This document shows positions 11,198 to 62,242 of a stretch of 64,000 nt of DNA, in pieces; within the stretch, counting starts at the first letter, position 1, and the number at the start of each line of letters is the position of its first letter. Source of the stretch: a phage; the sequence record NC_135732.1; one strand, 5' to 3'. Under the pieces are notes generated by a model, which was not told where the DNA came from, made no database searches, and worked only from the letters and a program-made list of their open reading frames with translations. A program made the translations under genes and the position numbers.

Positions 11198-12016
11198 TTG
11201 AGCAAGAAAGAGTCCAACGACAAATATTACACAAACCCTGAGTATGCAGAATATCTTGTTGGTAAAGTAAAAGATAAGTATGGAAATTGTGCATACGTTG
11301 AGCCTTCTGCTGGAAGGGGTTCTTTTTCAAAACTATTTTCAGAGATACTGTCTTACGATCTAGTACCAGATCCTGAATTTGAAGGACCAACACCGTGCAT
11401 TCAGGCAAACTTCTTGGAGGTGCATCCCAAGGCAGATGTCTTCATAGGTAACCCACCATTTGGCAAGAATTCATCTTTAGCTTGCAAATTCTTTAACCAT
11501 TGTGCATCATTGCTAGAGCTTGGAGGGGCTATAGCCTTCATCTTGCCACGGACATTTGAAAAAATATTTTTTGCAAACAAACTGGACATGTCGATGCACC
11601 TTGTCTACAGTGAAAGGTGCCCTAAGAACTCGTTTCTACTTAATGGCAAACCTTATGACGTGCCGTGTGTTTTCCAAATTTGGGAGAAAAAGGCGTGCAA
11701 CAGGGATCCTGTAGAGATTGGGGAGAATAAGTTATTTTCTTTTAGCACTCCAGATGACTACGACTTCTGTGTAAGACGTGTTGGGTATAATGCTGGAAAA
11801 GTATTGGGGGAGGATGACCCAAAATCTGAAGAATCAACATATTTCATAAAATCTTTAGTTGACGGTGTTGACAGAGTGTTTGCTGAATGCTATTCTTCTT
11901 TTCAAGAAGAAGCAGGTAAGACTGCCGGAATGAAGAGTATAGGTAAGAAAGAACTACAATACATTTTGGAGACTAGGTATGATCAAAAGCATAGACTTGA
12001 CCAAAGAACTTACTGA
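11198..12016 (+). CDS. DNA N6-adenine methyltransferase
   Basis: Motif I VEPSAGRGSF and motif IV IGNPPFG; TTG start 5 nt after GGAGG. Confidence 0.65.
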   Translation: MSKKESNDKYYTNPEYAEYLVGKVKDKYGNCAYVEPSAGRGSFSKLFSEILSYDLVPDPEFEGPTPCIQANFLEVHPKADVFIGNPPFGKNSSLACKFFNHCASLLELGGAIAFILPRTFEKIFFANKLDMSMHLVYSERCPKNSFLLNGKPYDVPCVFQIWEKKACNRDPVEIGENKLFSFSTPDDYDFCVRRVGYNAGKVLGEDDPKSEESTYFIKSLVDGVDRVFAECYSSFQEEAGKTAGMKSIGKKELQYILETRYDQKHRLDQRTY

Positions 12017-12437
12017 TGCAAAAGCTTTTGGTGAGACAGCGGTACAAAGGGGGCAGGCGATGGGACTGGCACTACCTTTCGTATTAAAAGAGCACTTTAC
12101 AGATTTTCAACTTATCAAGGGTGATAAGGGAATGCTTATCCTGGAGCATAAGTTGAGTAAGAAACGCTATAAAGTTGTTTTTAATTCTAAAGCTCCAACA
12201 AAACTGGGATTCAGAACTTACAATCTTAACCCATCCTACACTAAGGGTGTTGGAAGGGTAGAACAACAGCATTTCAGTGCCAGAGCTTCTTTAGCCCCTT
12301 TGATGCTAAATTTCTCAGGGGTGGCTTTAGGATACCTTGATAAGAAAAGAGTTCTTCATGTCCGTTTCACAGACTTTGTAACGCTTCTAGCCAACAACGA
12401 GGTTGATGAAAAGGGACGTGTAAAAACAAACTTCTAA
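11979..12437 (+). CDS. hypothetical protein
   Basis: ATG ORF overlapping upstream 3' end. Confidence 0.5.
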   Translation: MIKSIDLTKELTDAKAFGETAVQRGQAMGLALPFVLKEHFTDFQLIKGDKGMLILEHKLSKKRYKVVFNSKAPTKLGFRTYNLNPSYTKGVGRVEQQHFSARASLAPLMLNFSGVALGYLDKKRVLHVRFTDFVTLLANNEVDEKGRVKTNF

Positions 12438-12464
12438 TAACGCATAGTATGATTGGAGAACGCA

Positions 12465-12656
12465 ATGACACTAAAGTTAACAATTCCAGACAGCTTTTCA
12501 GAAGACTTTATCCCAGAAATGATGGGTAAGATGCGATCATTGCTTGATCAGATCGAGGAAGCTGTTTGGGAAGACGATGCTGTAGTGGCTAACGAGCTGG
12601 TAGATAAGTGTAAAAGTATTATTGATGCAGTTGAAGAATACCACGGAGGTTTTTGA
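12465..12656 (+). CDS. hypothetical small protein
   Basis: ATG after GGAGAA; track start was TTG. Confidence 0.45.
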   Translation: MTLKLTIPDSFSEDFIPEMMGKMRSLLDQIEEAVWEDDAVVANELVDKCKSIIDAVEEYHGGF

Positions 12657-13270
12657 TGGATATTATTGTTCTTAACGCCCCACCCAGCAGTGGTAAGGAT
12701 CACATTGCAGATCTCTTGTTGGAAGCTATTCCTAACTCACACCACCGTGAGGTTAAGGAGATGCTCTTCAGTGTGGCAATTAAGGCAGCTGGTGTAACTC
12801 CTCAACTCTGGAATGCACTTTATGACCGCCACTACAAAGAAGAGCCTTGCCCTTTCTTAATGATAGACGGCAAGCATGTTTCTCCGCGAGAATGGATGAT
12901 CCATTGTAGTGAAAATCTGATTAAACCTATCTTTGGTGAAGATGCTTTCGGTAAAGCCGCAGTCGCATCTTTGAAGAAAGATTTCCCTAAAGGTAAAGGG
13001 GTTGTTGTTTACTCTGATGGTGGATTCAAAGAGGAGCTGGCATGCCTTAGCGAGTACGCGTACAGCACAGGTGGAGATCTGTTGTTGTTCCGTATTCACC
13101 GTGTCGGATATGACTGGGGAAATGATTCCAGAACCTATCTAAGTCTGGAAAAGAACGGAATAAAAGGAATTGAGTTCGATGTTGTAAACCCTGAAGGTGC
13201 ACCTTGGGAATGTGCATCGGAGATTGTGTGCAAGTATATTGATGCTAAAGAGGCCCAAGAAGAATGTTAA
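12656..13270 (+). CDS. putative deoxynucleoside monophosphate kinase
   Basis: N-terminal P-loop-like LNAPPSSGKD; GGAGG RBS; context of nucleotide-metabolism genes. Confidence 0.45.
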   Translation: MDIIVLNAPPSSGKDHIADLLLEAIPNSHHREVKEMLFSVAIKAAGVTPQLWNALYDRHYKEEPCPFLMIDGKHVSPREWMIHCSENLIKPIFGEDAFGKAAVASLKKDFPKGKGVVVYSDGGFKEELACLSEYAYSTGGDLLLFRIHRVGYDWGNDSRTYLSLEKNGIKGIEFDVVNPEGAPWECASEIVCKYIDAKEAQEEC

Positions 13271-13857
13271 TCGGTATTGATGTAGATTTGACACTGGTAG
13301 ATTCAGGAACAGCATGGTGGGAGTGGTTGGAGCGTTTATATGGTCCAGCCAGTAAGACAGTCACTAAACCTTCTAATGGGTTAATGTATTACGATCTGTC
13401 AAAGTATTGGCCTGATCGCCCCAAAGAAAACATCATAGGGCCTTTTGATTTCTGGAGTGACCCGTTCCTCTACGACTTTCTTAAGCCTGAAGAGGGGGCT
13501 ATTGAGGTTATGAAAGATTTGGTGGCTCGTGGTCACAAGCTTGCATTTATCTCGGTATGCAAGAAAGGTCACCTTGCATCTAAATCAAGGTTCTTAAAGC
13601 GTTGGACTAGTGATTTTATGGATCTGGACGATCACACCCAGGGTCACGGCTTCTACGCCACGCATTTCAAGGGAAATGTGGCTGTAGATGTTATAATTGA
13701 CGACAGGCATGAATACCTGAACCAATTCGCTTCACGCCCTGAAGTTATTAAAATCCTAAAAGATACGCCTTATGAGCAATTTGAGGAGTTAAAGGTCAGT
13801 GTTGACTATACCGCTAATAGCTGGTATAAAATAGGAAAGTTTTTAGAAGGTATTTGA
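13264..13857 (+). CDS. HAD-superfamily phosphatase, putative 5'-deoxyribonucleotidase
   Basis: N-terminal GIDVDLTL (DxDxT HAD motif I). Confidence 0.5.
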   Translation: MLIGIDVDLTLVDSGTAWWEWLERLYGPASKTVTKPSNGLMYYDLSKYWPDRPKENIIGPFDFWSDPFLYDFLKPEEGAIEVMKDLVARGHKLAFISVCKKGHLASKSRFLKRWTSDFMDLDDHTQGHGFYATHFKGNVAVDVIIDDRHEYLNQFASRPEVIKILKDTPYEQFEELKVSVDYTANSWYKIGKFLEGI

Positions 13858-13858
13858 A

Positions 13859-14059
13859 ATGGGCAGATGTTCTAAAGGTGGCGATCCTGTAGTCAGATAC
13901 GGTGACTGGCTAGAGGTGTATGATCTGGGAGGTAAGCTGGTGTATGCCTCCAGGATCACCCAAGACATGTGCTCCGATATGTTCAACAGATACCTTGCAT
14001 TTAAGGCCAACATAAACCCAGACGAAATTTCCAAAATTAAAACAAGGAGAGCTAAATAA
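13859..14059 (+). CDS. hypothetical protein
   Basis: AGAAGG RBS. Confidence 0.45.
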   Translation: MGRCSKGGDPVVRYGDWLEVYDLGGKLVYASRITQDMCSDMFNRYLAFKANINPDEISKIKTRRAK

Positions 14060-15042
14060 TGCTAAAACTGTGCACTGCAAAGATCATTGCTGACAGCATT
14101 TCCGAGAAAGGTAAGCGCATCACAACTTTTGAGCTAGAGTATCCTCGAATTATTCACTCAGAGCTTATGACGCACCGAGTGTTCAGCCGAAACGCCATGT
14201 CTTCCCGTGCAGTGCCTGTCGGAAAGATGCTGCAACAGATTGTGGAGAATCCGGCAATGCCAGTTCGCTTCGGTGTAAATAAGCGAGGAATGGAAGATGG
14301 TGGGGAACACGATCAAAAGATCCGTGTAGAGTACACTGATATGGAGCTAACTCCGGAAGAGTTTTGGAAAGAAGCTGCAAAAAACGCCGCTTGGCATGCA
14401 GAGAAGTTTGCCCTTGCTGGTTACCATAAGCAAGTATGTAACCGCTTAGTGGAGCCTTTTCAGCGCATGAAAACAGTTGTAACAAGCACCGAGTGGAATA
14501 ATTTTTTCCACCTCCGTTGCTGGCACGATGCGGATCCTACGATTCAGATGTTAGCTAATTGTATGTGGGAGGCTCTTGTGAATAGCACTCCTGAAATCCT
14601 TAAACCGGGTCAATGGCACACTCCATATGTAGAGCACGTTTATTTGGACGGGGAGTTTAACTACGCTGTACGTGACACAGAAGGAAAGCTCTGCATTCTC
14701 GATACTAAAGAAGCTCTGTCTATCAGTGCTAGTTGCTGTGCACAAGTATCTTATCGAAATATTGACAGCACGTTTGAAAAGGCAGACAGTGTGGCTAAAA
14801 AATTGATTGGTGGGGATCGTATTCATGCAAGCCCTTACGAGCACCAGGCAACACCTATGGATCACGATAACGCAATGGAACGTTTAAACTACTACCTGTC
14901 TTCATGTGAAATCACACAAGACATCAGTACTTGGCAGGAAGGTGTAACCCATCAAGACCGTGATGGTAAATTCTGGTCTGCCAACTTTTGTGGGTGGGTT
15001 CAGCACAGACAACTGCTTAATAACCACTTCGTGAAAGGTTAA
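14059..15042 (+). CDS. putative flavin-dependent thymidylate synthase (ThyX-like)
   Basis: THRVFSRNAMSSR resembles ThyX RHRx7S signature (first Arg replaced by Thr). Confidence 0.4.
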   Translation: MLKLCTAKIIADSISEKGKRITTFELEYPRIIHSELMTHRVFSRNAMSSRAVPVGKMLQQIVENPAMPVRFGVNKRGMEDGGEHDQKIRVEYTDMELTPEEFWKEAAKNAAWHAEKFALAGYHKQVCNRLVEPFQRMKTVVTSTEWNNFFHLRCWHDADPTIQMLANCMWEALVNSTPEILKPGQWHTPYVEHVYLDGEFNYAVRDTEGKLCILDTKEALSISASCCAQVSYRNIDSTFEKADSVAKKLIGGDRIHASPYEHQATPMDHDNAMERLNYYLSSCEITQDISTWQEGVTHQDRDGKFWSANFCGWVQHRQLLNNHFVKG

Positions 15043-15071
15043 TCCTATCACAGCGATAGGTAACTTTTGTG

Positions 15072-15100
15072 TTGACTAATAGTATTAGATAATCTATAAT
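15072..15100 (+). promoter_or_regulatory. sigma70-like promoter
   Basis: TTGACT, 17-nt spacer, TATAAT. Confidence 0.6.
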
Positions 15101-15128
15101 AATGGCTCACTTTGTTGGTGAGCCAGAA

Positions 15129-15602
15129 ATGGAGACAGATATGAGTAATGTTATGATTCCTAAAAAGACATTTATTTCAGTTACTTTGGATTTCCTATCT
15201 ACCGTTCCCGGGTTTAACGTTCGCACACGAAACGGTCTCCGAGCTGCACTCTTTGCCGTAGGGTTTGATTTAAAAAGTATTGATGTTCTTCGTGGAAAAA
15301 ACGTTCGATGCAAAAATAAGCCAACACATTATCGAAAGGCAGATGTATTTGCTGGTGTCATGCGTGCAGACTTTAGATACCCGCAAATGTATAACGGTGT
15401 AGATATTTTAGATGTGGATAAAGCACCTGGTGAGGCAATGCTTGTTCAAGATCTTCCGTATGATATTCCTGTAGAGGATCGTGTTAATGTAAGAAAGTAT
15501 ACAAAACAATCTGAAAAGGCTGAAGATATTCATATTGTTGATGAACCTTTCAATTTTGAAGATCTGCATCGCCTGGAAAAATTATTCGGTATTGAAAGCT
15601 AA
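15129..15602 (+). CDS. hypothetical protein
   Basis: ATG after GGTGAG; alternative leaderless ATG 15102. Confidence 0.45.
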   Translation: METDMSNVMIPKKTFISVTLDFLSTVPGFNVRTRNGLRAALFAVGFDLKSIDVLRGKNVRCKNKPTHYRKADVFAGVMRADFRYPQMYNGVDILDVDKAPGEAMLVQDLPYDIPVEDRVNVRKYTKQSEKAEDIHIVDEPFNFEDLHRLEKLFGIES

Positions 15603-15612
15603 GGTGGTGAAG

Positions 15613-15843
15613 ATGAGTCATAACTCCAAGTGGAAGGATCTTGGTTTTGCAAGTCGGTCAGAGTATGTTGGTTGGCTTTGGTTCAACGGCCTGACAAACG
15701 ATATTAAAATGTATGATGATGTTTATTATGACGAGTATACAGGCAAAATTATAAATATCTCTGTAGAAGAGGATACCTTTATCCAGCAAGATACTGATAC
15801 CTGCCTTGATAAATACGTTGATGAAGTGGAGGAAGCAAATTGA
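15613..15843 (+). CDS. hypothetical small protein
   Basis: AAGGTGGTGA RBS then ATG; track ORF began upstream at a non-ATG codon. Confidence 0.5.
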   Translation: MSHNSKWKDLGFASRSEYVGWLWFNGLTNDIKMYDDVYYDEYTGKIINISVEEDTFIQQDTDTCLDKYVDEVEEAN

Positions 15844-18155
15844 TCACCAAGGTAATTAAAAGCAACGGATGTGAAGTGGCATTCGATCCAGAACGTTTAA
15901 ATAAGGCAGCTATTTTCGGTGACGACGGTAACGGCAATTGGTCACATATTGCACTGGATGCATACAAACGACTGTATGATGGATGTACAACCAAAGAAGT
16001 TAACCAAGCTATCATAGACTCCTGTGTTAGCCGTAAAGACGAAGCACATTCCCGTATGGCTGGTCGTGTTCTTATTGGTCAGATTTATAAAGAGGCTTTT
16101 GGAGGGTTTACAAAGATCCCTTCCTTACCATCATTTTACAACGACATGGTTGAGAAAGGGTATTGGGAGGATATGGGATATAGCTTTACCGAGCTAAACA
16201 CTTTAGACGCTGTTATTGACCACAGTAAAGATCTCGGTTATGGCTATGCAGTCCTTAAACAGTTTCGCGACAAATACGGGATCAAGGATACTCTTAAAGA
16301 CACCTTGTTTGAATCTCCCCAGATGATGTTTATGGGGATAGCAATGGCTGTCATGAAGAATATGCCGAAAGAACGTCGTATCAACGATGTTGTAAAATTA
16401 TACACTTATCTGTCCGACTTAAAGATCAATGCCCCGACACCGTACTTAAACGGGCTGCGCACAGGTAAGACAGGGTATGCATCTTGTTGTGTAATAAAAG
16501 CTGACGATACAGCAAAATCTATTGGTGTGGCACGTGAAGTTGCGTACACAATGACGGTTAACCAAGCAGGTATCGGCTACTATTTATCATCAAGATCTGC
16601 AGGTGATGGTGTTCGCGGTAACACTATTAAACACATGGGTAAGATTCCATATTATCGAGGTATTGATGCTGGTGTTAAGGAGAACAGACAACAATCACGT
16701 GGCGGTTCTGCAACAGTATCATTCCTTGCACTGGACCCGCAGATTGATGAGCTAATCCGTTTGAGAAACCCTATGACTGTTGCTTCAAAAAGAATCAACA
16801 CCATGGACTACTCCATCGGTATTAATAGGTCGTTTATCAACCGTGTGGCTAAGAATTTAGATTGGATGCTTGTTTCTTATAAGCACGCTCCTCAACTGCA
16901 TGAGGGTATCTTCACCATGTCTATGGAGGAGTTTGATGCAGAGGTTGATCGTATTGCTAAAGATGACAGTATCCCTAAAACATGGATCCGAGCCAGAGAT
17001 CTTGCTGTTGAACTGATCACGCAGCGTACTGAGGTGGGAAGGCTGTATGTATACTGGACAGATGAGATGAATAGACATACACCTTTTAAAGATGTGATCT
17101 ATTCAAGTAACCTGTGTGCAGAAATAGCCCTCCCTACAAAAGGCTATTCAGATATGCGTAATATCTTCAAGTACGATGCTGATGATGGAGAGGTTGCATT
17201 GTGCTTCCTGTCATCTCTTGTAGCTGGAAGGGTTACTCCAGAGGAGTATGAGGATGTTGCATACTACACGGTGCTTATGATTGACAATGTTATGGAAATC
17301 ATGACATATCCGTATGAAAATATGGAAAGCACAGTTAAAAAACGCAGATCCATCGGGGTTGGCCTTACCAATGTTGCACATTTTATTGCCAGCCACAAGG
17401 TTACTTACGGATCTCCTGAAAGTAAACAGCTTGTTCACGATCTTGCAGAACTTCACAGCTACAGCTTGCATAAGGCAAGTTTACGGTTGGCAAAAGAGCG
17501 TGGTGTCTGCGAGTGGATGCATAAAACAAAATATCCAGAAGGTTGGTTACCAATCGACACCTATAACAAAGAGGTCGATAGCGTGGTGAAAGATCCTTCT
17601 CTTAAACAGGATTGGGAAGGGTTACGTAAAGAAATTATTGAAAATGGTGGGCTACGTAATAGCGTTCTTGAAGCATATATGCCTAATGAAAGCTCTTCGC
17701 TGGCAACAGACACCACTAACGGGGTTTATCCTGTCCGTGAGCACATTATCTTTAAAAAGTCGCCACAAGGGCAGGTGCTGTTTATCGTTCCTGACTATGA
17801 TGAGTTGAAAGAGTATTACACCTCGGCTTGGGACGTTGATACTAACGACATGATCGATATGTATGCTGTGATTCAAAAATTTACAGGTCAGGCAATCAGC
17901 GCGGATTTATACATAGACTACACCAAGTTGAAAGATGGTAAAATTTCAATGAAGGAGCAGCTAGGGTACCTTATCCGTGCCACTAAATTCGGGATGAAGA
18001 CATGGTATTATTTAAACTCCAGGGTTGGTGCTGGTGACTCATTGGCAGAGGAACTTCATGCCAAGAAACAGGCTGAAGATGAAACCAGAAAGAACTACCC
18101 TTTGATTGCAGATAGTTCGGTTGAAGATCCGTATTGCGAAAGTTGTGCACTATAA
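15840..18155 (+). CDS. nrdA: ribonucleotide reductase class I large subunit
   Basis: N-terminal ATP-cone, SNLCAEIALP active-site motif, 771 aa; TTG start after GGAGGAAG. Confidence 0.9.
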   Translation: MITKVIKSNGCEVAFDPERLNKAAIFGDDGNGNWSHIALDAYKRLYDGCTTKEVNQAIIDSCVSRKDEAHSRMAGRVLIGQIYKEAFGGFTKIPSLPSFYNDMVEKGYWEDMGYSFTELNTLDAVIDHSKDLGYGYAVLKQFRDKYGIKDTLKDTLFESPQMMFMGIAMAVMKNMPKERRINDVVKLYTYLSDLKINAPTPYLNGLRTGKTGYASCCVIKADDTAKSIGVAREVAYTMTVNQAGIGYYLSSRSAGDGVRGNTIKHMGKIPYYRGIDAGVKENRQQSRGGSATVSFLALDPQIDELIRLRNPMTVASKRINTMDYSIGINRSFINRVAKNLDWMLVSYKHAPQLHEGIFTMSMEEFDAEVDRIAKDDSIPKTWIRARDLAVELITQRTEVGRLYVYWTDEMNRHTPFKDVIYSSNLCAEIALPTKGYSDMRNIFKYDADDGEVALCFLSSLVAGRVTPEEYEDVAYYTVLMIDNVMEIMTYPYENMESTVKKRRSIGVGLTNVAHFIASHKVTYGSPESKQLVHDLAELHSYSLHKASLRLAKERGVCEWMHKTKYPEGWLPIDTYNKEVDSVVKDPSLKQDWEGLRKEIIENGGLRNSVLEAYMPNESSSLATDTTNGVYPVREHIIFKKSPQGQVLFIVPDYDELKEYYTSAWDVDTNDMIDMYAVIQKFTGQAISADLYIDYTKLKDGKISMKEQLGYLIRATKFGMKTWYYLNSRVGAGDSLAEELHAKKQAEDETRKNYPLIADSSVEDPYCESCAL

Positions 18156-18161
18156 TTTTAA

Positions 18162-18183
18162 AGGGGCTTCGGCCCCATTTTAG
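18162..18183 (+). terminator. rho-independent terminator
   Basis: GGGGC-TTCG-GCCCC hairpin then ATTTT. Confidence 0.6.
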
Positions 18184-18194
18184 AGGTTAGAATA

Positions 18195-19283: not shown

Positions 19284-19286
19284 TAT

Positions 19287-19565
19287 ATGAGCTGCGAAAA
19301 ATCTTTTTTCATCATCATTTACGGTAAGGATAACTGCCCACATTGTGTCAGAGCAAAAGAATTTGCAATCAGCAAAGGTCTGCCTTTTGTATATAAGACA
19401 CTTGGCGAGGGCTACACAAAAGAAGAGCTTATTGAGAAGTGTAGTCCAATCGTCCCCCGAACGTTGCCGCAGATCTTCTTAGAAAGCGATCTTGACAGTA
19501 TCCATATAGGCGGTGCCGACGATTTCATCTCTTTTGTTAAGAATGGTTTTGGAGAGAAAAAGTGA
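19287..19565 (+). CDS. glutaredoxin / NrdH-like redoxin
   Basis: CPHC active site (YGKDNCPHCVRAK). Confidence 0.7.
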   Translation: MSCEKSFFIIIYGKDNCPHCVRAKEFAISKGLPFVYKTLGEGYTKEELIEKCSPIVPRTLPQIFLESDLDSIHIGGADDFISFVKNGFGEKK

Positions 19566-26056: not shown

Positions 26057-26590
26057 ATGACTTGTGCTCGAAAACCTGATGAACAACGTAACGCCTACGA
26101 TGAGTATGTGACACCGGAGTGGTGTGCAGAAGGGCTGTATGACCTTATTCCGTTCCCAGAAGACTGGACCTACTTAGAGCCTTGCAGGAATAGTGCCTCA
26201 GGTGTGTTCTACTCCCGTATGCCGTTAGGATCTGCATGGGGAGAAATCCAAGAAGGTGTTGACTATCTGAATACAGAATACAACCATGTTGACTGTATTA
26301 TCACCAACCCACCATACAGTTTGGCTCGTGAGTTTGTAGACAAGGCGTTGAAAGATGCTGACGTAGTTATTATGCTTTTGCGTCTTAATTTTCTGGAAAG
26401 CAAAGCCAGATTTGAATGGTGGCTTGATAATGCACCTACCACTGTGATCACAATATCTAAGCGTCCATCTTTTCAATCAAATGGCAGAACTGACGGGCAA
26501 GCATATGCATATTTTGTGTGGGATAAGAAAAACCGTTTAGGCTTGCCGCCATTTATGTGGTTGGCACCACCAGAGGTAGACCTGAAATGA
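26057..26590 (+). CDS. putative DNA methyltransferase (NPPY motif)
   Basis: DCIITNPPYS motif IV; small 177 aa. Confidence 0.45.
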   Translation: MTCARKPDEQRNAYDEYVTPEWCAEGLYDLIPFPEDWTYLEPCRNSASGVFYSRMPLGSAWGEIQEGVDYLNTEYNHVDCIITNPPYSLAREFVDKALKDADVVIMLLRLNFLESKARFEWWLDNAPTTVITISKRPSFQSNGRTDGQAYAYFVWDKKNRLGLPPFMWLAPPEVDLK

Positions 26591-27818: not shown

Positions 27819-28343
27819 ATGCTTCTGATTAACTGGGAAGACCTCTATGGGGACAAAGACCCTGTTGCGTTTGTTGATCGTAGGTGGAGATACACTGAAG
27901 AACAACTGGCGGCAAAAAATTTAACTGCAAAACGCAGAAAGATCATCCAGTGCAAGTACAAATACGCACAGTTTGCTGCAAAAGTGTCTCCACAAATCGA
28001 GAGCTTTGTGCTTAAATTGTATGACGAGTACCTCAAATTCAAATTGGATTTTGTGCAGGTGTACCGTGCACAGGTACGACCAGATACCAACATATGTAGA
28101 TGGGAGGTTGTTTGTGAAGGTAAAGATTTGCCGCTCAGCTTGACAATTGAGTGGCGTTATGGGTATCATGAGTGTGGTCTGTATGATATTTGGGATGTCA
28201 TTGTAGATCCTGCTAAGCATCTGAACACAGAGGAGCTGGAATATATCAATAAGGTTATTCTCGATATGTTTTTCAGCTACACACATGAAAACTCTGAGAA
28301 AGAACGGGATAATTTTCTTGACACCCTCAGCGACCATTTGTAG
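27819..28343 (+). CDS. hypothetical protein
   Basis: GGAGGAG RBS then ATG. Confidence 0.5.
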   Translation: MLLINWEDLYGDKDPVAFVDRRWRYTEEQLAAKNLTAKRRKIIQCKYKYAQFAAKVSPQIESFVLKLYDEYLKFKLDFVQVYRAQVRPDTNICRWEVVCEGKDLPLSLTIEWRYGYHECGLYDIWDVIVDPAKHLNTEELEYINKVILDMFFSYTHENSEKERDNFLDTLSDHL

Positions 28344-38314: not shown

Positions 38315-38443
38315 CACACAATTAGCTGCCCGGCTAAAGTGCTGGAAGCGCACCTATAACACATATTTCAACTAAATTTCCCACCACCACAATCACTTAC
38401 CTACCACACGTGACTGTTTGCTTGTTTAGTGAGCAGTCATGCC

Positions 38444-38471
38444 TTGACATTCTTGCCTATCCTGATAAAAT
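38444..38471 (+). promoter_or_regulatory. sigma70-like promoter firing into non-coding region
   Basis: TTGACA, 16-nt spacer, TAAAAT; no credible ORF downstream. Confidence 0.4.
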
Positions 38472-39791
38472 TAAGTTCTTCTCTTTTCTTTTACCGAGTA
38501 ATTCGGGTTTTCTGTTCTCTTCGGTTTGAAGGGGTATGGAGATACACCTGAGTGAACAGGGTGAACAACCGAACCATTAGCTATGGCATTAGCATGGCGA
38601 AGCGGACGGGTGACGAAAGAGGGGCCGGAGGACACCAGTCACTGCCATATGATATATGGGTGATAACCTGAAGAGTCTGAATAAGTGTTTAAGTACCAGT
38701 CAGAGGAAAAGGTGAATGGTAGCCGAAGGGGGAGGGGGGGTTTCTTGTATCTTTAATTTGTATATTATGTATACACTTGTAAACCAATTTCATATGAATC
38801 TGTTTACCACACAAAGTGGATTGAGACAAATATTACCTATTAAACTTGAATTATTTATAGAAAATACCACAACACACCTTAAGTCTTTGATTTTACACAT
38901 AAATCTTACAGATATTCAACCTCCATATTTAACATACTTGTAACATATCCTATACCACACCTGCCTGATCAATTCCCCCAACTACATCCTCTATATTTTC
39001 CCTGTCTGTACTACCCCATCCCCGCCGGGAGTCCCGTCATATCTGGCTTTCCAGCAAATATCACACCCACAAATATCATTGCCTGAAGAGGGTTTCATCC
39101 TCTAATACCTGCCTTACCTGAAGAGCGCTTCATACACCACGTAAATTTTTTAATTGACCTGCAATTTTCCCGTCATGACCCCCTGCCCCGCCGGAGAGGT
39201 TGGCTTTTCCCACACAGACCTGAAGAGTCAGCCAGAAATATCTGAACAGGCCCAATTCTACCACGATTTTGACCTGACCTACAGGAGTGCTGCCAGGCGG
39301 ACGAAATGGGAATACTTCTCATTCTTATAATAATTCTCAAATATCGAGGCAGTGAAGCAAATTAATAGGTGAGGCCGTTCACATAGTGGCACAACATTTG
39401 CAATCTATTTTGTGTGGGGGAATGAGAATACCTATCATTGTGAGAACTGTTATCATTACGGGCAATTTAACATAATACCCATTATGCGCACCACTGGCGA
39501 TACATACAGGGATTGATAACATGAGTTACTGTTTACGCATATAACAATTATATTTATTACTATTTGTGTGGGATATAGTTAGCAGCCGATAGATTAGATA
39601 TTGACCTGCGGACTTCTGACCGTCTAGACGTCTAAACGCCCACACAGCAAGAGTTATACATACATCGCTGAATGTAAACAGGGCCGCAAAAATGCTACCA
39701 TACCAGTTTGTAAATTTTTCATGCAGCACTTGACAAAGAGGAGAAAAACTTGTCTGACATAATGTGACCTAACTGACACAACATGACACTT

Positions 39792-39875
39792 TTACACACC
39801 TATTAGTTTACACACTGGATTGTTTACATTCCTGATTGTTCACATGCTAACCATTTACATGATTGACTGTTTACA
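39792..39875. repeat. iteron-like array of TTTACA(C/T)A motifs
   Basis: Six copies at about 15-16 bp spacing (39792, 39807, 39823, 39838 variant, 39854, 39870). Confidence 0.6.
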
Positions 39876-39888
39876 CACCGATAATCAG

Positions 39889-40138
39889 CCATGCCATTCG
39901 TTTGCATGACAATAATTATACATGACAATAATCGCACTGATTATAATTAGCATGACATAATATAAAAGCAGGGCAACTATTAGCAGATCTATAGTTGCCT
40001 TGCTTGTTATGTCATGATTAACTAAATACAAGGCAACTATGATCTGATTAATAGTTTGCAGACAAACTATCACGGGGGTGATGGTTACTGCTTTTATATT
40101 ATGTCGCGACTCCGTCGCGCCATGCCATTCGTTTGCAT
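39889..40138. repeat. symmetric element: 18-bp direct repeats flanking inverted repeats
   Basis: CATGCCATTCGTTTGCAT at 39890 and 40121; inverted arms 39950-39971 and 40089-40111; internal hairpin 39971-39998. Confidence 0.6.
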
Positions 40139-40763
40139 AGTTGCCTTATTGTTACAGATAAAATAATTGTATTGTTAATTATTTCTTATCTTTCTATTAG
40201 TCATCTAATGATTTCAGTTAATATAGTAACGTACAGTAAACATTAGACGACTAAAGATTTCTCTGCTTATGGTAACCTAACGTGACAATTCCAGACTGTT
40301 TACGAAAAATGTTGACACCTGGGCCGATTTATGTTATGCAGTTTACACGAATAATTATTTTATGCAGGTATTGACTATTCCGTTATTCTACGGTTGGAAT
40401 AAATGCTTAGCAGGCTATAGAATGGCGAGCGTACGTAAATTCTGAGATCTGGCGGCTATAGTTATACTCGATTTTTCACGTAGAAAACGCTTTTGTAGTT
40501 ATGTAAGTGTATGACTTATAAGAATTTTTAGTTGTTGACAAGCTATTGAAGATATGCATCAGGTTAAATTTTGTGCAAATGCTGCATTACGTGCAATTTT
40601 GGAAGGAAAAACGTGTAAAAATGGCCCTGCTACCACACAATGAAAAATTATGCAATAGTTATTTTATATGTATGTTTGTACAGTGGGGTTAATTGCTGGC
40701 TTGTTGATTATTCCATTTGCCAGGCGGGGCCATTTGTGGTAGGAAAAGAGGAGACAAAAAGAA

Positions 40764-40788
40764 AGGGGCTTTAAGCCCCTGACCGTGC
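40764..40788 (-). terminator. rho-independent terminator for minus-strand block
   Basis: GGGGC-TTTAA-GCCCC hairpin followed on the minus strand by TTTCTTTTT. Confidence 0.6.
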
Positions 40789-40799
40789 ACCTTGTTGTA

Positions 40800-41064
40800 T
40801 TATTTGTTGCTCATCCAGTTTTCCCAAGCTGCCTGATAATCTGCCTCACTACGGCGGATCTCTTCTTGCTCTTCAAGGCGGATCTCTTCTTCCAGGTACC
40901 CCAAGATGTCAGCCTTTTTGGTCTGGCGTAACATCCAATCATCTTTTTTTACGAGTGAAGATCTTATAAGCTTTCTCGCAAACCTCTTTTTTGCTACCTT
41001 TCTGGACTTCAAGAATTCTGTAGGCCATGTACTGAACTAATTTAAGCTGATCCAGACGTTTCAT
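40800..41064 (-). pseudogene. small basic protein gene with apparent 1-nt frameshift at an A7 tract
   Basis: ATG 41064 frame stops at 40939; downstream frame (track ORF 40800..41012, TTG start) continues; junction at homopolymer 40944-40950. Confidence 0.4.
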
Positions 41065-41141
41065 GATGTTTCCTCTTTATGTGGTTCGTTTTGATTAGTT
41101 GATAATACAGCAGTTCGCAGATCAGTCTTTAGCAATTCATG

Positions 41142-52386: not shown

Positions 52387-52396
52387 CCTACCTCCT

Positions 52397-53096: not shown

Positions 53097-53145
53097 AAAA
53101 GTCTCCTCTTTGCTCAACAACACTTCCATGTGTTGATAGTTTACA

Positions 53146-53499
53146 TTAGTGACAATCACCCCAATTACGACCACACAAGTATTCACCTGTGATCTGGAAC
53201 GGGACTCCCATCATTTTAGAAGCTTGCCAGAAGCAATGCACCACCATTTCACCCACCGGGCTCCAGATAAGTTCAAGCTTCCCGTCATCGTTCAGGATAG
53301 GATCGTACACCGTGTTTCCGTCTCTGTCAACCACTTCGTTTCCGTTCTCATCCTTGCGTGCCTTTTTGTACTTATGACCGTCAAACACATGAAGTTTGGC
53401 TTCCTGCTCTGCCTTAAATGCTTCCAATTCTTCAATTGTGTCGAAGGTGTACACAGTCTTATACTTAGGCGTGTCAGGGACCTGAAGTTGGTACTCATC
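53146..53499 (-). CDS. DNA polymerase family A, exon 2
   Basis: Begins DEYQ (completes motif C YHDE with exon 1); ends ...VPFQITGEYLCGRNWGDCH like Pol I / T7 gp5 C-termini; no in-frame ATG. Confidence 0.7.
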   Translation of the reverse strand, partial: DEYQLQVPDTPKYKTVYTFDTIEELEAFKAEQEAKLHVFDGHKYKKARKDENGNEVVDRDGNTVYDPILNDDGKLELIWSPVGEMVVHCFWQASKMMGVPFQITGEYLCGRNWGDCH

Positions 53500-56765: not shown

Positions 56766-56823
56766 ATACAGTTCTCCTTAAAGGGGAGGCGGTTGTACTA
56801 CCCCTCCCACTCTTTGTTAAACA

Positions 56824-58902
56824 TTAAAAAGGTGTTTCATCATCCTCAAAACCAGGGACCGGATCAGAGGATGGATCATCGTATTGGAGGTCTTCCTGCG
56901 TGTCAATAGGCTTGACAGTGGGTGTTACAACCTTATCAGCCACAACCTTGCCCATAGGTGTTTCTACAACTGCATGCTCCTGATCCTCAAACATAGCCTG
57001 AGGTCTCCAAACAACCTCCCCACCTTCTCCGTCTGTAAACATCTGCATTTCTTTGTCCCAGTACCAATTACTGGCATCATGGAACTTACCTGTATGCGGA
57101 TCCATAACTAAAGTGTCAGCAATACCTAAAGTTTTTGCTGGACGGTTTTTAAGACCTACCAGACGGACACGTCCACGAGAACGATCCACCATTTCTTCGG
57201 CCTCGACACCTATGACTACCCAACTCAACTGTTCAAGCCCAGCCGATCCTCGCAAATTCTCTTTTCGCACAGGATACCAGAAAGGTAATGGGTTACCATC
57301 CTTGTCCTTAGGGGGCACAATCTCTGTACGTTTGAGGTGAGCGATCACCAAGATAAACACGTTAAACTGCTTACAAAACGCAGCCAGTTGGGTCATAGCC
57401 ATGTCCAGTTCTTTTCGCTCATCCTTAACATTAAGCCCTGAAATTACCATGGACAGGTGATCCAGCACAATATAACGACAATGGTACAGGCAAACCATTT
57501 GCTTAAGCTTGGTAATCAACTCGTCCACTGGAATAGACCCGAAATGTTTGAACACTTTGATTTTTCCAGCTTTTGCCCATGATTGGTGAATCTCTGCGTG
57601 TTCTTGATCAGTTAAAAACTGGCTAGGATCTTCAACAAACTCTTTAACATCAAACCCTAACTGGTTTGCATACAAGGAGTTAATTGCTTCCTCTGGGTCC
57701 TCCTCAAGATGGATCATACATAGACGATCATCCTCTTCATAGTCATCAGCCTTCGGGCATGTTGGGTCCATTAGGTATCTTGCAATACAATGTTCCAGTT
57801 TTTTAGCTACGGTTGTTTTACCGCCACCTGATGGGCCTGTAAGCATTACAAGTGTCCCCTTGTGCAAGCCTTTTAACATTTTTTGCAGTTTTGGGAACTC
57901 TGCACTGATATCTACCCCGTTGGAAGTCTTTTTCCGCAAAGACTCGATAGAGAAGTCTTCTAAGTCCGACACAGCATCAGGCACATATTTAACAGGATGC
58001 CGGAACATGTTGACAATATCTTCCAGCTTTTTAGCCTTCAGCATGTCACGGATATCTTTTACCCCGTCAGGGTCATTTACTTCACCAGGGTATTCTACGT
58101 GGTAAACGTTATCAGCCATCAAAAATGCTGCGATATTGTGCGTGGCCTCAACACCTTTAATGACGTGTTTTTGCTTCTCTACCTCGTTGGCTGCATCGTT
58201 ATCCATTGCCAGCACAACTGTTCCATAGCTACGGATAAACTTCTCATTGTTTGCAAAAGTATCTACTGCGTTTGCACATCCACAGTTAATTCCAACAAAA
58301 GGTAGGCAGGGTTTTCCTGCCAGATCACCACCGTTGATAACTGCATCGATCCCGTCCTGGACCTCTTTAGCCCACTGTTTCACCTTTGCCGGGGCTTTAG
58401 CATTGGTGAGAATCCCTTTTACTTGTATCTGATATGCAGCCTGCCATGCTGCAATAACATCGCCTTCCCCCTCACAAACGTTAATCTGCTTACGGTTGTT
58501 AGAAGATGCACACAGCTTTTGCCCAAACATTTGGGAGTTAGCCTTTACGATCCCAACCGTCGTAAAGTGCCCACGTTGCTCTTTGGGGATCGTCCAGTCA
58601 CGCTTTTTGAAACCGGACAGATTCCCGTAGCGGTCGTAATATGGGAAATATGTTGCAGTAACTGTCACACCGTCTTCTTGGGACAATGCTGATCGCACAC
58701 CAAAATATTGTGCAGCCATCAGACCGATATTTTGTTGTGGGACAGGGACAATTTTAGTATTTTCTAAAACAGTCTCTACAGTTTCAACTTCTTTTTCATC
58801 ACGATAGTCTCGTTTCACACTTCCCCCACTTTTATACTTAGTTGCTTTCGGGTTTGGCTCACCGAAACGGTTGTATGCAGATGCCATAAATTTACTTCCC
58901 AT
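56824..58902 (-). CDS. primase-helicase (T7 gp4-like)
   Basis: TOPRIM-like CEGEGD and AMDNDAANE, Walker A LTGPSGGGKTT, Walker B IVLDHL; acidic tail ending DDETPF. Confidence 0.8.
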   Translation of the reverse strand: MGSKFMASAYNRFGEPNPKATKYKSGGSVKRDYRDEKEVETVETVLENTKIVPVPQQNIGLMAAQYFGVRSALSQEDGVTVTATYFPYYDRYGNLSGFKKRDWTIPKEQRGHFTTVGIVKANSQMFGQKLCASSNNRKQINVCEGEGDVIAAWQAAYQIQVKGILTNAKAPAKVKQWAKEVQDGIDAVINGGDLAGKPCLPFVGINCGCANAVDTFANNEKFIRSYGTVVLAMDNDAANEVEKQKHVIKGVEATHNIAAFLMADNVYHVEYPGEVNDPDGVKDIRDMLKAKKLEDIVNMFRHPVKYVPDAVSDLEDFSIESLRKKTSNGVDISAEFPKLQKMLKGLHKGTLVMLTGPSGGGKTTVAKKLEHCIARYLMDPTCPKADDYEEDDRLCMIHLEEDPEEAINSLYANQLGFDVKEFVEDPSQFLTDQEHAEIHQSWAKAGKIKVFKHFGSIPVDELITKLKQMVCLYHCRYIVLDHLSMVISGLNVKDERKELDMAMTQLAAFCKQFNVFILVIAHLKRTEIVPPKDKDGNPLPFWYPVRKENLRGSAGLEQLSWVVIGVEAEEMVDRSRGRVRLVGLKNRPAKTLGIADTLVMDPHTGKFHDASNWYWDKEMQMFTDGEGGEVVWRPQAMFEDQEHAVVETPMGKVVADKVVTPTVKPIDTQEDLQYDDPSSDPVPGFEDDETPF

Positions 58903-59656
58903 TAATTCTGCTCCTTACTACAGGCTCGTTTGCTAAGAATACGGCTTTTGCCCAGCCACGTGGTGTGAGGCTTCGGATCATCTTCGTTCTTGCACTCTTC
59001 CCACCCAGCTTGGCGTGTTGCATGGAATACCCGCTAACCGCGTCAACTATTTGCGGGACAGGTTTTGTGGCCGGGATTATAAATCCATTACCTATCCAGC
59101 CGCAAGTTATTTTTGGATAGGCATCACGTGGAGCTATAAATTCAGGAAACCAGGGGTTTACATCATCCTCCGGTAAATACCCGCCATAGTCAGAAGGATG
59201 AAAACGGTAATCAGGTTTGCGCCACAGTGTGGACATAACACCAACAGGATTCTCTACATGCCACGGGCAATCGTAAATCTCTCCCAGCTCTTCCGCAACC
59301 CGAGCATCCTTTACAGCATTAATTTGGATCAAAGGATCCTTAGCCAGCTTTTTCTTAAAATGTGCAGCACCTGATACCGCTAAATGCGTGCACGGAGGAA
59401 ATGCAAGAATAAAGTCTGGAGCTGGATACATGCAAAAAGTTTCCTGAGGGAACCATGGGTCAATCCAATAATCCACATAGTGAATGTTAGGATGATCGGT
59501 TATCACCTCTGCATAACTGCCGTGGTCAGCACCTTCTGCATTAAAGCACAGGCACAGGTACCCAGCTTTTGCCCAGTCAATAACTGCACCACCAGACCCG
59601 TCAAATAGACTCCACACAACACCTTTGTGGTAGTGTTCTTTGTAGATGAATTTCAA
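58892..59656 (-). CDS. DNA cytosine-5 methyltransferase-like
   Basis: Motif I LFDGSGG, motif IV FPPCTH, motif VI HVENPVG; start uncertain: track GTG 59686 lies inside terminator hairpin, TTG 59656 follows GGAG. Confidence 0.5.
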   Translation of the reverse strand: MKFIYKEHYHKGVVWSLFDGSGGAVIDWAKAGYLCLCFNAEGADHGSYAEVITDHPNIHYVDYWIDPWFPQETFCMYPAPDFILAFPPCTHLAVSGAAHFKKKLAKDPLIQINAVKDARVAEELGEIYDCPWHVENPVGVMSTLWRKPDYRFHPSDYGGYLPEDDVNPWFPEFIAPRDAYPKITCGWIGNGFIIPATKPVPQIVDAVSGYSMQHAKLGGKSARTKMIRSLTPRGWAKAVFLANEPVVRSRINGK

Positions 59657-59673
59657 TTTGCTGTCTCCTAATG

Positions 59674-59702
59674 CAAAAAGCCCCACCCTTTCGGGCAGGG
59701 CC
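59674..59702 (-). terminator. rho-independent terminator (second copy of repeated element)
   Basis: Same CCCTGCCC-GAAA-GGGTGGGG hairpin then U-run as at 48693. Confidence 0.6.
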
Positions 59703-59707
59703 TAGTG

Positions 59708-60190
59708 TTAAACCCGGATACCTATTGTATACTCGGTGGATACCAATGTCAAATCTAAATTTAAAATTTCTTGCATCTCATAATATGCGTCCAGGGTTAG
59801 ATACATTTCCCCATCCTTTTCTACATACTTGTCCAAGTGCTTGAGGCATTTCGGATAACTATCAAGTGCAGCTTTCAGGCACTCAAACTCTGTGCTGTTG
59901 ATGAATCCTTCCATCTTGGCTACCCGTTCTGGGGTAATGATAGCACTGTAGTGAGATTTAGCTTCCTGAATGCAATGGGTCCAAGCATCAACCTTCTCTT
60001 CGAAAAGTCCAAAGAACTTCTTTTTGGTGAGCTTCAGATTCTTTAAGTGCTTAAGCACTCGGTTGCCGATTACAGCCACATCACGAAACTTAAGGATCAC
60101 CTTGTCGATATCCTCGCGGCCTATTTTCACAAAGCAGGCTTCGCACATTTCAGGGGCTGCGTAACCTACTTTCCACATAAAATCTGACAT
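59708..60190 (-). CDS. hypothetical protein
   Basis: AAGGAGAAGG RBS. Confidence 0.5.
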   Translation of the reverse strand: MSDFMWKVGYAAPEMCEACFVKIGREDIDKVILKFRDVAVIGNRVLKHLKNLKLTKKKFFGLFEEKVDAWTHCIQEAKSHYSAIITPERVAKMEGFINSTEFECLKAALDSYPKCLKHLDKYVEKDGEMYLTLDAYYEMQEILNLDLTLVSTEYTIGIRV

Positions 60191-60202
60191 ACCGCCTTCT
60201 CC

Positions 60203-60598
60203 TTATTCCTTAAAAGCTATGATATCATAGGAACTTGCAGATGATTCTGGTGAAGAATGACTCCAGTCCAGGTCATCAGAATAGTCAGCGTACTGTGCAC
60301 CACTACGTAGTTTATATTTTACCCACTTACCTGGTGCAGGGTTTTCACCACCTTCCCATACTTCCCAGCCTTCTGGCAGGCCGTCCTGGGGATAGTCATC
60401 CACCTCACTAATAATCTTAGGGTTTGGCACCAAGATCCCTGCAGGCTCTTCCTTCCGGATAAGTGTCCACACAACGTAGGTGTCTGAGCAGGCGCATGAT
60501 AGCAAAGTATATCCACTATTCAGAACTTCTGCAAGCTCTTTTTCAGCATCTTCCAATTTGGTTAAGTGGTATTGGATAATCTTCACACCTGTAATCAT
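60203..60598 (-). CDS. hypothetical protein
   Basis: GGGAGG RBS. Confidence 0.5.
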   Translation of the reverse strand: MITGVKIIQYHLTKLEDAEKELAEVLNSGYTLLSCACSDTYVVWTLIRKEEPAGILVPNPKIISEVDDYPQDGLPEGWEVWEGGENPAPGKWVKYKLRSGAQYADYSDDLDWSHSSPESSASSYDIIAFKE

Positions 60599-60903
60599 CA
60601 GAAACCTCCCACTTCTTCAGCAAATGCAGCTGCTGTCGTCGCTGCATCCAGATAGGACTCTAGTTCACGGGCTGCACGTTTGTAAATTGAGTGGCGCATA
60701 TCGTTTGGCAGTTGGTGGAAGTCCACCTCTTCACCGTTGTGGTAAACATGCACATCGGTGATTTGTCTAAATCCGTAACAGTCAACATCAGAATCCCGGC
60801 ACTCCGGATCTGGCAACTGAACAACTGCCTGAGCTTCCACAGTAAACATATCGTCAAGTTCGAAATCGATTTCAAAAGTGTATGGTTTATAACGTTTCAT
60901 CAT
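60598..60903 (-). CDS. hypothetical protein
   Basis: ATG ORF, likely coupled to upstream gene. Confidence 0.45.
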   Translation of the reverse strand: MMKRYKPYTFEIDFELDDMFTVEAQAVVQLPDPECRDSDVDCYGFRQITDVHVYHNGEEVDFHQLPNDMRHSIYKRAARELESYLDAATTAAAFAEEVGGF

Positions 60904-60916
60904 TTGATTGTACTCT

Positions 60917-62242
60917 TTATTGATCAGAATTATCTTTCGTAATTAAGGTCTGGGTAAGTTTGTAATAGCGGAAGCCACCGCCACCTTGCCAGCTTGCAGA
61001 CTTAGAAATACCACCTTGATCTTCACCATCAATCACTTTTTGCAAGCGAGGGATAATATGGGTATGACAATGATCACCCAGTTCGATCAAGATCCAACGT
61101 CTTTTCATCTTGTGGGCTACAGCAGCAGTAGTTCCCGAACCGCCGAATGAATCCAATACCAAATCACCTTCTCGCGTACACATTTCGAGAATCCGCTTCA
61201 AAAGCGCTTCTGGTTTTTTTCCATTTTTGAAACTAACGCCGCCTTCATTTGCTATTCCATTCCAACTAATGTCTGTCCAAACATCAGTTATTAGTTCCGC
61301 AGGTTGCATCTCACCGTCAATTTCCAAAAGCCTGTTGGAGTAAAAGACCATTTGCCTACCATTTGCGATATAAAATCCTTCAACATCCTCATTCGGATGT
61401 ACATAAACCTTATCCCTATCTTTCTTTGACTTCTCGATAGTTTCTTTTCTCTTTATTTTAGCGCCACCACCAATTGCAACAGATTGAAATACACGTTCTG
61501 CATTATCAATTGCGAATTGTGCTAATTCATCATCGAATGTGTCAGGCAGTTTTTTCTTAGCTTCTTTTGCATCTTTATAGCCATTGGCCTTTGCAAACGC
61601 ATCGGCAATACCGCACCACGTCCAATTTTTATAATGGTCATCCGGGTTTAATAGGTATTTGTTATATCCTGTATCATACCCTTTAGTTATATAGATTTTG
61701 TTAAGCGGTTTCTGGTTGCGATCTTTTGCATATACAAGCAAAAAGTTTGCTGTGGAGAAAACTGTGGCTCCTGTTGCCTTAAATCCCGAAGGGGAATTTG
61801 TGGTCATCGATATGGTATTTAGCTGATTTGCACGACCAAAAATCTCGTCCATCAAAACTTTTAAATACGCCATTTCGCAACCATCTAAGTGAACGAATAT
61901 TACCCCATCATCACTCAGAAGATTACGAATTATTTCTAACCTATCCCTCATTAAGCCCAGCCAAATGGAATGCTCCAGACTATCATCGTAGTGCTCAAAA
62001 GCCCTTCCGGTATTGAATGGTGGGTCTATGTAAACACACTTCACTTTGCCTGCATACTCTTGCTCTAGCGCCTTCAATGCTAATAAGTTATCTCCAAAAA
62101 TCAGCTTATTATCAAAAATATCGTTTTCGGTCACTTTCTGGCTGTGGTAAGACTTGCTCGAATCTTCTAACAAAGTGTGCGGCTCTAGCTTTTTGCGCTC
62201 GTTTTTACCTATCCAGGTGAGTTCTAATTTGGTTTTGCTCAT
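60917..62242 (-). CDS. DNA amino-methyltransferase (N6-adenine or N4-cytosine, beta class)
   Basis: Motif IV VYIDPPFNTG precedes motif I DSFGGSGTT (circularly permuted order). Confidence 0.7.
   Translation of the reverse strand: MSKTKLELTWIGKNERKKLEPHTLLEDSSKSYHSQKVTENDIFDNKLIFGDNLLALKALEQEYAGKVKCVYIDPPFNTGRAFEHYDDSLEHSIWLGLMRDRLEIIRNLLSDDGVIFVHLDGCEMAYLKVLMDEIFGRANQLNTISMTTNSPSGFKATGATVFSTANFLLVYAKDRNQKPLNKIYITKGYDTGYNKYLLNPDDHYKNWTWCGIADAFAKANGYKDAKEAKKKLPDTFDDELAQFAIDNAERVFQSVAIGGGAKIKRKETIEKSKKDRDKVYVHPNEDVEGFYIANGRQMVFYSNRLLEIDGEMQPAELITDVWTDISWNGIANEGGVSFKNGKKPEALLKRILEMCTREGDLVLDSFGGSGTTAAVAHKMKRRWILIELGDHCHTHIIPRLQKVIDGEDQGGISKSASWQGGGGFRYYKLTQTLITKDNSDQ

Follow-up and report, generated by a model that had tools for sequence, protein, structure and literature searches.

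The 64,000-nt stretch of phage sequence record NC_135732.1 analysed here (one strand, 5′ to 3′; hereafter the window) encodes four solitary DNA methyltransferases (MTases), which we consider likely to modify the phage's own DNA at a handful of short motifs, giving motif-specific protection rather than general immunity. MTase A (11198–12016, + strand) is a 272-aa gamma-type N6-adenine DNA MTase of a type II restriction–modification (RM) family and the candidate GTAC enzyme; MTase B (26057–26590, +) is a 177-aa minimal gamma-type N6-adenine MTase without a separate target-recognition domain (TRD) and the GATC methylase; MTase C (58892–59656, −) is a 254-aa minimal 'Dcm-like' C5-cytosine MTase; and MTase D (60917–62242, −) is a 441-aa beta-class N6-adenine MTase derived from a type III Mod protein, without the Mod C-terminal domain (CTD). 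In the mechanism that we propose, the replication and nucleotide-metabolism modules would supply these four enzymes to act on newly made phage DNA. B would methylate GATC, A most probably GTAC, and C would produce 5-methylcytosine (5mC), probably at a Dcm-like site, while D would pre-methylate the asymmetric site of the type III system that donated it without assembling with Res. The net effect would be protection against nucleases that read unmethylated GATC, GTAC and Dcm-like sites and against one type III system, at the price that phage methylases of such kind trigger retron defences.

The window is entirely phage DNA and comprises two converging blocks of small, densely packed genes, with the GC skew changing sign near 38 kb. 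Megablast with 10-kb and 18-kb pieces returned more than 110 near-full-length Vequintavirus (rV5-like) matches at 95–99.6% nucleotide identity, among them the E. coli myoviruses nomo, ime, pangalan and the BASEL phages; the window is the nucleotide-metabolism and replication half of a ~137-kb genome of this group. The initial annotation had listed four MTases here, and all four open reading frames (ORFs) are present with intact catalytic motifs: the catalytic residues are invariant in the homologue alignments of A, B and C, and the motifs of D are intact. The types it had assigned (N6-adenine for A, NPPY for B, C5-cytosine-like for C and beta-class with permuted motif order for D) agree with the motifs and profile matches. 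Its count of four different classes holds for families, of which there are four, but not for classes, of which there are three, since A is distantly homologous to B: the profiles of the two families align across all of B (hhalign probability 97%, E 4.8e-11), and both share the gamma-type motif order. No fifth MTase was found in the window, there being no other credible ORF with [DNS]PP[YFW] or with PPC and ENV together. Pfam and NCBIfam give A, B and C no above-threshold match, and PDB searches with these three as single sequences returned nothing useful. The orthologues of A, B and D are already annotated as 'putative N6 adenine methyltransferase' in BASEL records, and that of C as 'Dcm-like C5 cytosine methyltransferase', with similar labels in other records.

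B carries Y-x-TP, a partly degenerate S-adenosylmethionine loop (EPCRNSASG) and an invariant T83-N-P-P-Y (TNPPY), and it is matched by phrog_799, 'DNA methyltransferase', at 5.5e-67. Its AlphaFold2 (AF2) model (predicted local distance difference test score (pLDDT) 87.5) is a minimal Rossmann methylase, which a fold search placed closest to the gamma-class N6-adenine MTases type I HsdM, M.BseCI and CamA, with a resemblance to KsgA/Dim1 as well. Phage orphan Dam methylases (T4 Dam, T1/HP1 Dam, PF05869) are solitary enzymes that methylate the GATC adenine, and the small T1/HP1-type Dam has no separate TRD. Weak PF05869 matches are given by 16 of 25 B-family members, but B itself scores below the cut-offs of PF05869 (19.2 versus 28.1 bits) and of TIGR01712 phage_N6A_met (16.1 versus 97), has only the NPPYS segment in common with the KarlJaspers T1-like Dam and falls in a separate family, phrog_799. 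B works like the PF05869 and TIGR01712 enzymes yet belongs to neither family.

The function of B can be read from Bas51 (WalterGehring), a phage 96–99% identical to the window phage. The Bas51 'N6 adenine methyltransferase' orthologous to B is identical at 176 of 177 residues and occupies the same place beside a ClpP-like protease gene; there is no difference of substance, the activity having been measured on the Bas51 enzyme and B being known by sequence. A 2025 study isolated Bas51 escapers of two retrons and found the mutated residues to be D69, D79 and T83 (PMC12548924). Because only one of the three Bas51 N6-adenine MTases, the B orthologue, has D, D and T at these positions, it is the retron trigger.

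Nanopore sequencing in the same study, which called N6-methyladenine (m6A) only, found methylated adenines in wild-type Bas51 at GATC (1405), GTAC (509) and other sites (576), and in the T83P mutant at GATC (35), GTAC (511) and other sites (349) (PMC12548924, Fig. 4f). We counted 703 GATC and 258 GTAC sites in the assembled Bas51 record, equivalent to 1406 and 516 adenines on both strands. The nanopore counts approximate these site counts (1405/1406 for GATC and 509/516 for GTAC in the wild type; 511/516 for GTAC in T83P), and thus essentially all GATC and GTAC adenines are methylated, which bears out the heavy genome methylation first proposed for this phage. Since the T83P substitution lowers the GATC count from 1405 to 35, GATC methylation needs B and the host Dam adds little; since 511 GTAC adenines stay methylated, GTAC methylation is independent of B. 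B therefore methylates GATC (m6A), as shown experimentally for its 99%-identical orthologue. In the window, GATC occurs at expectation (observed/expected 1.04) and GTAC is the most depleted palindromic 4-mer (121 observed versus 202 expected; ratio 0.60, z -7.4). CTAG is also depleted, and k-mer statistics alone reveal no specificities; as a compositional signal, the GTAC depletion is consistent with long-standing pressure from GTAC-reading nucleases.

The B orthologue is reported to be toxic in E. coli (PMC12548924), and Bas51 carrying D69G, D79G or T83P reaches about a third to half of the wild-type titre on a retron-free host (PMC12548924, S4 table). As this plating loss is modest at most, GATC methylation is not essential in the laboratory. 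A further gene bearing on retrons, at 27819–28343 (+), lies 1.2 kb downstream of B and is the orthologue of the Bas51 'putative glycosidase', in which a premature stop (R87*) abolished defence by Retron-Asa1 and left defence by Retron-Squ1 unaffected (PMC12548924). The product of 27819–28343 gives a marginal PADLOC REase_II match (E 0.008).

C has the C5-cytosine motifs LFDGSGG (I), FPPC (IV) and ENPV (VI), with C89 and E135 invariant in the family, and is matched by phrog_757 at 5e-87. Its AF2 model (pLDDT 87.4) has the DNMT3A and DNMT3B catalytic domains as its closest matches, with a Foldseek probability of 1.0 and template-modelling (TM) scores of 0.5–0.58. PF00145 does not match C itself, although 12 of 25 family members reach E ≤ 0.1 (best 1.3e-6), and a PDB profile search with the family returned only marginal matches to DNMT3B and HaeIII. 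The most informative homologue is the 236-aa Dcm of K42, a Drexlerviridae phage related to KarlJaspers. Liquid chromatography–mass spectrometry shows 5mC made by this enzyme on the msDNA of retron Ec86; it needs a CCWGG site, triggers the retron thereby and has the catalytic residues C82, E128, K175 and K176 (bioRxiv 10.1101/2023.08.16.553469). C is 54% identical to the KarlJaspers Dcm (E 2e-86), and it shares with the K42 and KarlJaspers enzymes a length of ~236–254 aa, a DNMT3-like fold and aligned catalytic Cys and Glu, C89, E135 and K182 corresponding to C82, E128 and K175 of K42. CCWGG is mildly depleted in the window (0.77). By analogy with this 54%-identical homologue, C probably makes 5mC, and its site is probably Dcm-like.

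The C family is very large: its protein clusters number over 3500, and it is found in 1503 phage records, from Drexlerviridae, Dhillonvirus, Webervirus and others. Its members often adjoin replication helicases. In the window, C starts at a TTG codon at 59656 behind AGGAG, a GTG at 59686 lying inside the terminator hairpin; this terminator-like hairpin (GCCCTGCCCGAAAGGGTGGGGCTTTTT) and then the AGGAG ribosome-binding site occupy 59657–59700 (−), directly upstream of the TTG. The last 11 bp of C (58892–58902) also form part of the start of the primase/helicase gene. In phage EmilHeitz, a homing-endonuclease gene is inserted exactly between these two genes.

A, B and C belong to the core of the genus, while D is an accessory gene of recent host origin. 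The first three occur in ~116–120 phage records, versus 87 for D, and are kept across Vequintavirinae and their relatives at 48–66% identity with conserved neighbours (B adjoins the ClpP-like protease gene, and C the helicase/primase genes); none of the three has a DNA homologue among 5426 complete E. coli genomes. The ratio of non-synonymous to synonymous substitution rates (dN/dS) against EmilHeitz is 0.03 for B, 0.04 for C and 0.13 for D, indicating purifying selection. Conservation this deep is unusual for arms-race genes, and one could suppose that A, B and C mainly serve phage physiology, marking DNA for replication, repair, packaging, gene timing or the distinction of self from host. 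That they are embedded in replication and nucleotide-metabolism operons would fit such a role, as would the finding that GATC is not depleted and is fully methylated by a phage enzyme rather than by the host Dam. Against this, the three Bas51 mutants keep a third to half of the wild-type titre on a retron-free host, and the depletion of GTAC points to restriction pressure. We regard a mainly physiological role as unlikely, but the deep conservation of A, B and C across genera leaves room for one beside the evasion of defences.

D is a PF01555 protein (E 1.5e-42) in which DPPF (residues 73–76) precedes FGGSGTT (365–371), the beta-class order (IV, TRD, I). PADLOC MTase_III matches it at 2e-199 and EcoP15I Mod at 2e-24, and it resembles EcoP15I-type Mod proteins (PDB 4ZCF; PMC4490356) in the N-terminal ELTWxGK, DPPF, the central TRD and FxGxG, arranged in beta-class order. 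DNA of D is found at ~94% identity in 24 of the 5426 complete E. coli genomes, and the protein is 95% identical over 438 aa to the 568-aa E. coli Mod WP_024226319.1 (PADLOC MTase_III 7e-285), whose gene is directly followed by that of the 912-aa Res WP_024226320.1 (PF04851; REase_III 9e-191). Local blastn and inspection of the junctions place the homology to the host mod gene at 60908–62255 (−; 93.5% identity). The capture took in the 5′ 79% of mod, beginning 13 nt ahead of the start codon and reaching host codon ~450; the phage stop codon arose by a ~15-nt deletion. EmilHeitz shares the same homology end points, which argues for a single capture event. Only three substitutions distinguish the TRD-equivalent region of D from that of the host Mod, and the two are thus expected to have the same target site.

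The capture left out the C-terminal ~127 aa of the host Mod. D ends at the equivalent of EcoP15I D520, between the MTase domain, whose last residue is 516, and the CTD (539–644). The EcoP15I structure shows Mod dimerising through its N-terminal and MTase domains, and the dimer is able to methylate by itself; the extensive contacts with Res are made by the CTD of ModA (PMC4490356). D, as judged from this alignment, keeps the recognition and methylation parts and is without the Res-binding part. There is no res gene near D in the phage and, in contrast to EcoP15I-type and host Mods, D has neither an adjacent Res gene nor a Res-contacting CTD and is an accessory gene that some phage isolates carry and others lack; it is Mod-derived rather than a complete Mod. 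That a phage carries a recently captured host type III Mod without the domain equivalent to the EcoP15I Res-contact domain is a new observation. A comparable capture is said to have been described by Hill and colleagues in 1991, in which the lactococcal phage phi50 acquired a functional part of the LlaI methylase of plasmid pTR2030 and escaped that system. In both cases a lytic phage would have taken up a fragment of a host RM methylase, but the LlaI source was a plasmid-borne type IIA methylase and that of D a chromosomal type III Mod, and the protection afforded by D is predicted.

Full-length, intact D is kept in ~85 phage records at 92–99.9% identity. A T5 run at 62112–62116 (−) is T6 in EmilHeitz (Bas49), causing a frameshift after codon ~42; in EduardKellenberger (Bas59), D is cleanly absent, and its ribosome-binding site and ATG context now serve the neighbouring gene. 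Together with Bas48 and Bas51, in which D is intact, these phages form a natural series. The frameshift, the clean absence, the missing C-terminal residues and the like behaviour of Bas48 and Bas49 on six RM systems would all be expected if D had entered by chance recombination with a host gene and were now a decaying relic that does not function. We think this improbable: a relic does not readily account for the many intact copies, the dN/dS of 0.13, the integrity of all catalytic motifs and the mere three changes in the TRD-equivalent region, or for a truncation that takes out precisely the Res-contact domain and spares the dimerisation and catalytic parts.

A more elaborate role for D can also be envisaged. 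Because the dimerisation surfaces are kept and the Res-contact domain is gone, D may act on the host enzyme as well: such a 'Res-blind' Mod would pre-methylate the site of the host system and might also heterodimerise with the host Mod and poison the assembly of the restriction complex. We put this forward as a doubtful possibility. If true, D would combine the roles of methylase and dominant-negative anti-restriction protein, and its variation in presence and reading frame would stem from a continuing arms race or from a cost, for example sensing by Mrr-type systems or retrons.

The source of D is a compact mobile defence island. In both host genomes examined (L017 3115–12464 and L018 919–11464), the same island comprises, in order, a MAD1 helix-turn-helix protein, a DrmD-like SNF2 protein, AbiD, AIPR or a short hypothetical protein, the type III Mod and Res, with an ArdA remnant and disrupted integrase genes close by; the L017 island adjoins tRNA-Sec (selC). 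In the phage, a 101-aa acidic ORF just downstream of D (60598–60903, −) has a weak match to a PHROG 'DNA methyltransferase' (2.4e-6). It is probably not a methylase, having no Pfam match and no methylase motifs and being present in the D-less Bas59 too. No methylase or nuclease domains were found in the small ORFs flanking D and C.

Plating data allow the reach of this methylation to be gauged. Vequintavirinae were described as 'exceptionally susceptible' to RM systems (Maffei et al. 2021). CarlMeissner (Bas48), the closest BASEL relative for D, has an efficiency of plating of 4e-4 to 1e-3 on EcoRI, forms no plaques on EcoRV, and plates at 0.02–0.09 on EcoCFT_II and 0.09–0.56 on EcoP1 (Maffei et al. 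raw data). Bas48 and Bas49 taken together give about 5e-4 to 1e-3 on EcoRI, no plaques on EcoRV, and 0.02–0.5 on EcoCFT_II and 0.1–0.8 on EcoP1, the last two values showing partial restriction by two type III systems (Maffei et al.). Bas49, in which D is broken, behaves like Bas48 on the six RM systems. Restriction sites are in general little avoided in the window, which contains 7 EcoRI and 21 EcoRV sites. The initial annotation had proposed that the four methylases jointly give broad protection against RM systems, and the presence of four intact enzymes and the density of methylation, roughly at least 1900 m6A in 140 kb for Bas51, would be in keeping with this. The strong restriction of Bas48 and Bas49 by EcoRI and EcoRV, the partial restriction by EcoCFT_II and EcoP1 and the presence of EcoRI and EcoRV sites with little site avoidance tell against it; broad protection is already largely refuted for the six tested systems, and we consider it very unlikely. 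Methylation of GATC, GTAC, a Dcm-like site and one type III site blocks only those nucleases that read them, and thus the protection is motif-specific.

It comes at a cost. The B orthologue triggers Retron-Asa1 and Retron-Squ1 (PMC12548924), and retron Ec86/Eco1 is set off by a homologue 54% identical to C (bioRxiv 10.1101/2023.08.16.553469).

There remains the enzyme that methylates GTAC. To our knowledge, E. coli K-12 has no enzyme methylating GTAC adenines; as B is not needed either, A and D are the only sources left for the activity. Both strands of the palindromic GTAC are methylated, whereas type III Mods such as EcoP15I methylate a single strand of an asymmetric site (PMC4490356), which makes D an unlikely GTAC enzyme. 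By elimination, A most probably methylates GTAC (m6A). A has its motifs in gamma-class order, X (DKYYTNP), then I (VEPSAGRGSF), then IV (GNPPFG), all invariant in an alignment of 25 homologues (39–86% identity) that has 34 invariant columns. PADLOC MTase_II PDLC03255 matches A at E 1.3e-33 (residues 8–253 against 2–249 of 269) and phrog_5172 at 2.5e-129; PF26055 is precomputed for many A homologues. From the profile alignment, A is in effect a B-like core with a conserved ~100-residue C-terminal extension.

A scan for bacterial A homologues, in which the best 80 genome loci were kept, supports the type II affiliation. In 10 of these 80 loci, a conserved ~200–216-aa partner lies directly downstream and matches a type II restriction-enzyme model (REase_II, 5e-11). 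The ORF downstream of A in the phage (11979–12437) has no similarity to this bacterial partner and no Pfam match, and A is therefore solitary. In Poseidonibacter and Paracoccaceae, an A-like MTase and a REase_II-like partner (phrog_6892) form a two-gene module (L008 5001–6404; L015 3030–5438; L016 90–2498), right after an IS1595-family transposase gene in Paracoccaceae and ~4 kb from the transposase in Poseidonibacter. From its gene order, this module looks like a transposon-borne type II RM system, possibly specific for GTAC. The modification attributed to A is a known one, as M.HpyAXII, M.PabI and M.CviQI produce GTm6AC, and DNA so methylated resists RsaI (PMC2588503). The same modification is found on Vequintavirus DNA, but these enzymes have no detectable sequence relationship to A (M.HpyAXII has 331 aa), and no host of M.HpyAXII or M.PabI is among the best 80 loci.

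The most improbable of the readings that we weighed takes A for an RNA (rRNA/tRNA) m6A methyltransferase of the METTL5/Ta1320 type and leaves GTAC to D: the best PDB profile matches of the A family are Ta1320 (E 0.002) and METTL5 (0.14), the LDQFYT, FDIDP and NPPFG motifs are common to them, one A homologue matches the rRNA adenine dimethylase Pfam family and JGI labels some 'predicted RNA methylase', but this weak similarity is outweighed by the type II evidence, namely the full-length match to PADLOC type II DNA MTase models, the REase_II-like partner directly downstream of bacterial homologues and the IS1595 transposase beside some of them, and by the methylation of GTAC on both strands.

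Several points weigh against the assignments that make up motif-specific protection by four solitary enzymes. The methylome is that of Bas51 and not of the window phage itself. GTAC was assigned to A only by elimination, and no characterised GTAC MTase was found among the relatives of A. The variable loop of C, between the GNGF and GGKS segments, is of the GYSxQH type as against the DNPGW type in the K42 enzyme, and one of the two active-site lysines is Ile in C (K182-I183 versus K175-K176), so that the specificity of C may differ from that of the K42 Dcm. The activity of a Mod without its CTD is predicted from the EcoP15I structure. The cognate host system of D is rare (0.44% of complete E. 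coli genomes), yet ~87 phage records carry D, and the need to evade this single system may not account for D being kept. The plating benefit of GATC and GTAC methylation on natural hosts is likewise a prediction.

Two observations from the same data lie outside the methylases. Around the strand switch and the change in sign of the GC skew, ~2.7 kb (38400–41100), unannotated in BASEL records, is without any ORF of at least 80 aa. It holds a perfect 18-nt inverted repeat (39954–39971 and 40088–40105), a perfect 20-nt direct repeat (39888–39907 and 40119–40138) and GGCAACTAT-type repeats; no tRNA and no Rfam family were found in it. These features make the region a candidate replication origin or divergent control region. 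Second, 13–21 unannotated MG0656xx 'Campylobacter phage' records, with C. jejuni as host, are 96–98% identical to E. coli Vequintaviruses in the compared regions; the host label is probably wrong, through contaminant or co-isolated coliphages.

Most of what this analysis covers is already known from GenBank annotations and from two recent papers; methylation and restriction are not treated in the rV5 genome paper. Our additions are incremental: the Bas51 retron trigger is mapped to B, complete GATC and GTAC methylation follows from counting sites, GTAC is assigned to A by elimination, A and B are related, and D has a host origin and a CTD-less architecture with a natural allelic series.

The general picture is unchanged, in that phages use solitary methylases for motif-specific evasion. 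What emerges is a map from gene to motif for the Vequintaviruses, with B acting on GATC (shown), A predicted to act on GTAC and C predicted to make 5mC, and for D a ready natural allelic series (Bas48, Bas51, Bas49 and Bas59) in a public collection. Vequintaviruses are broad-host-range candidates for phage therapy and biocontrol, and the methylation of their DNA bears on which restriction systems stop them, which retrons they set off and how they can be engineered.

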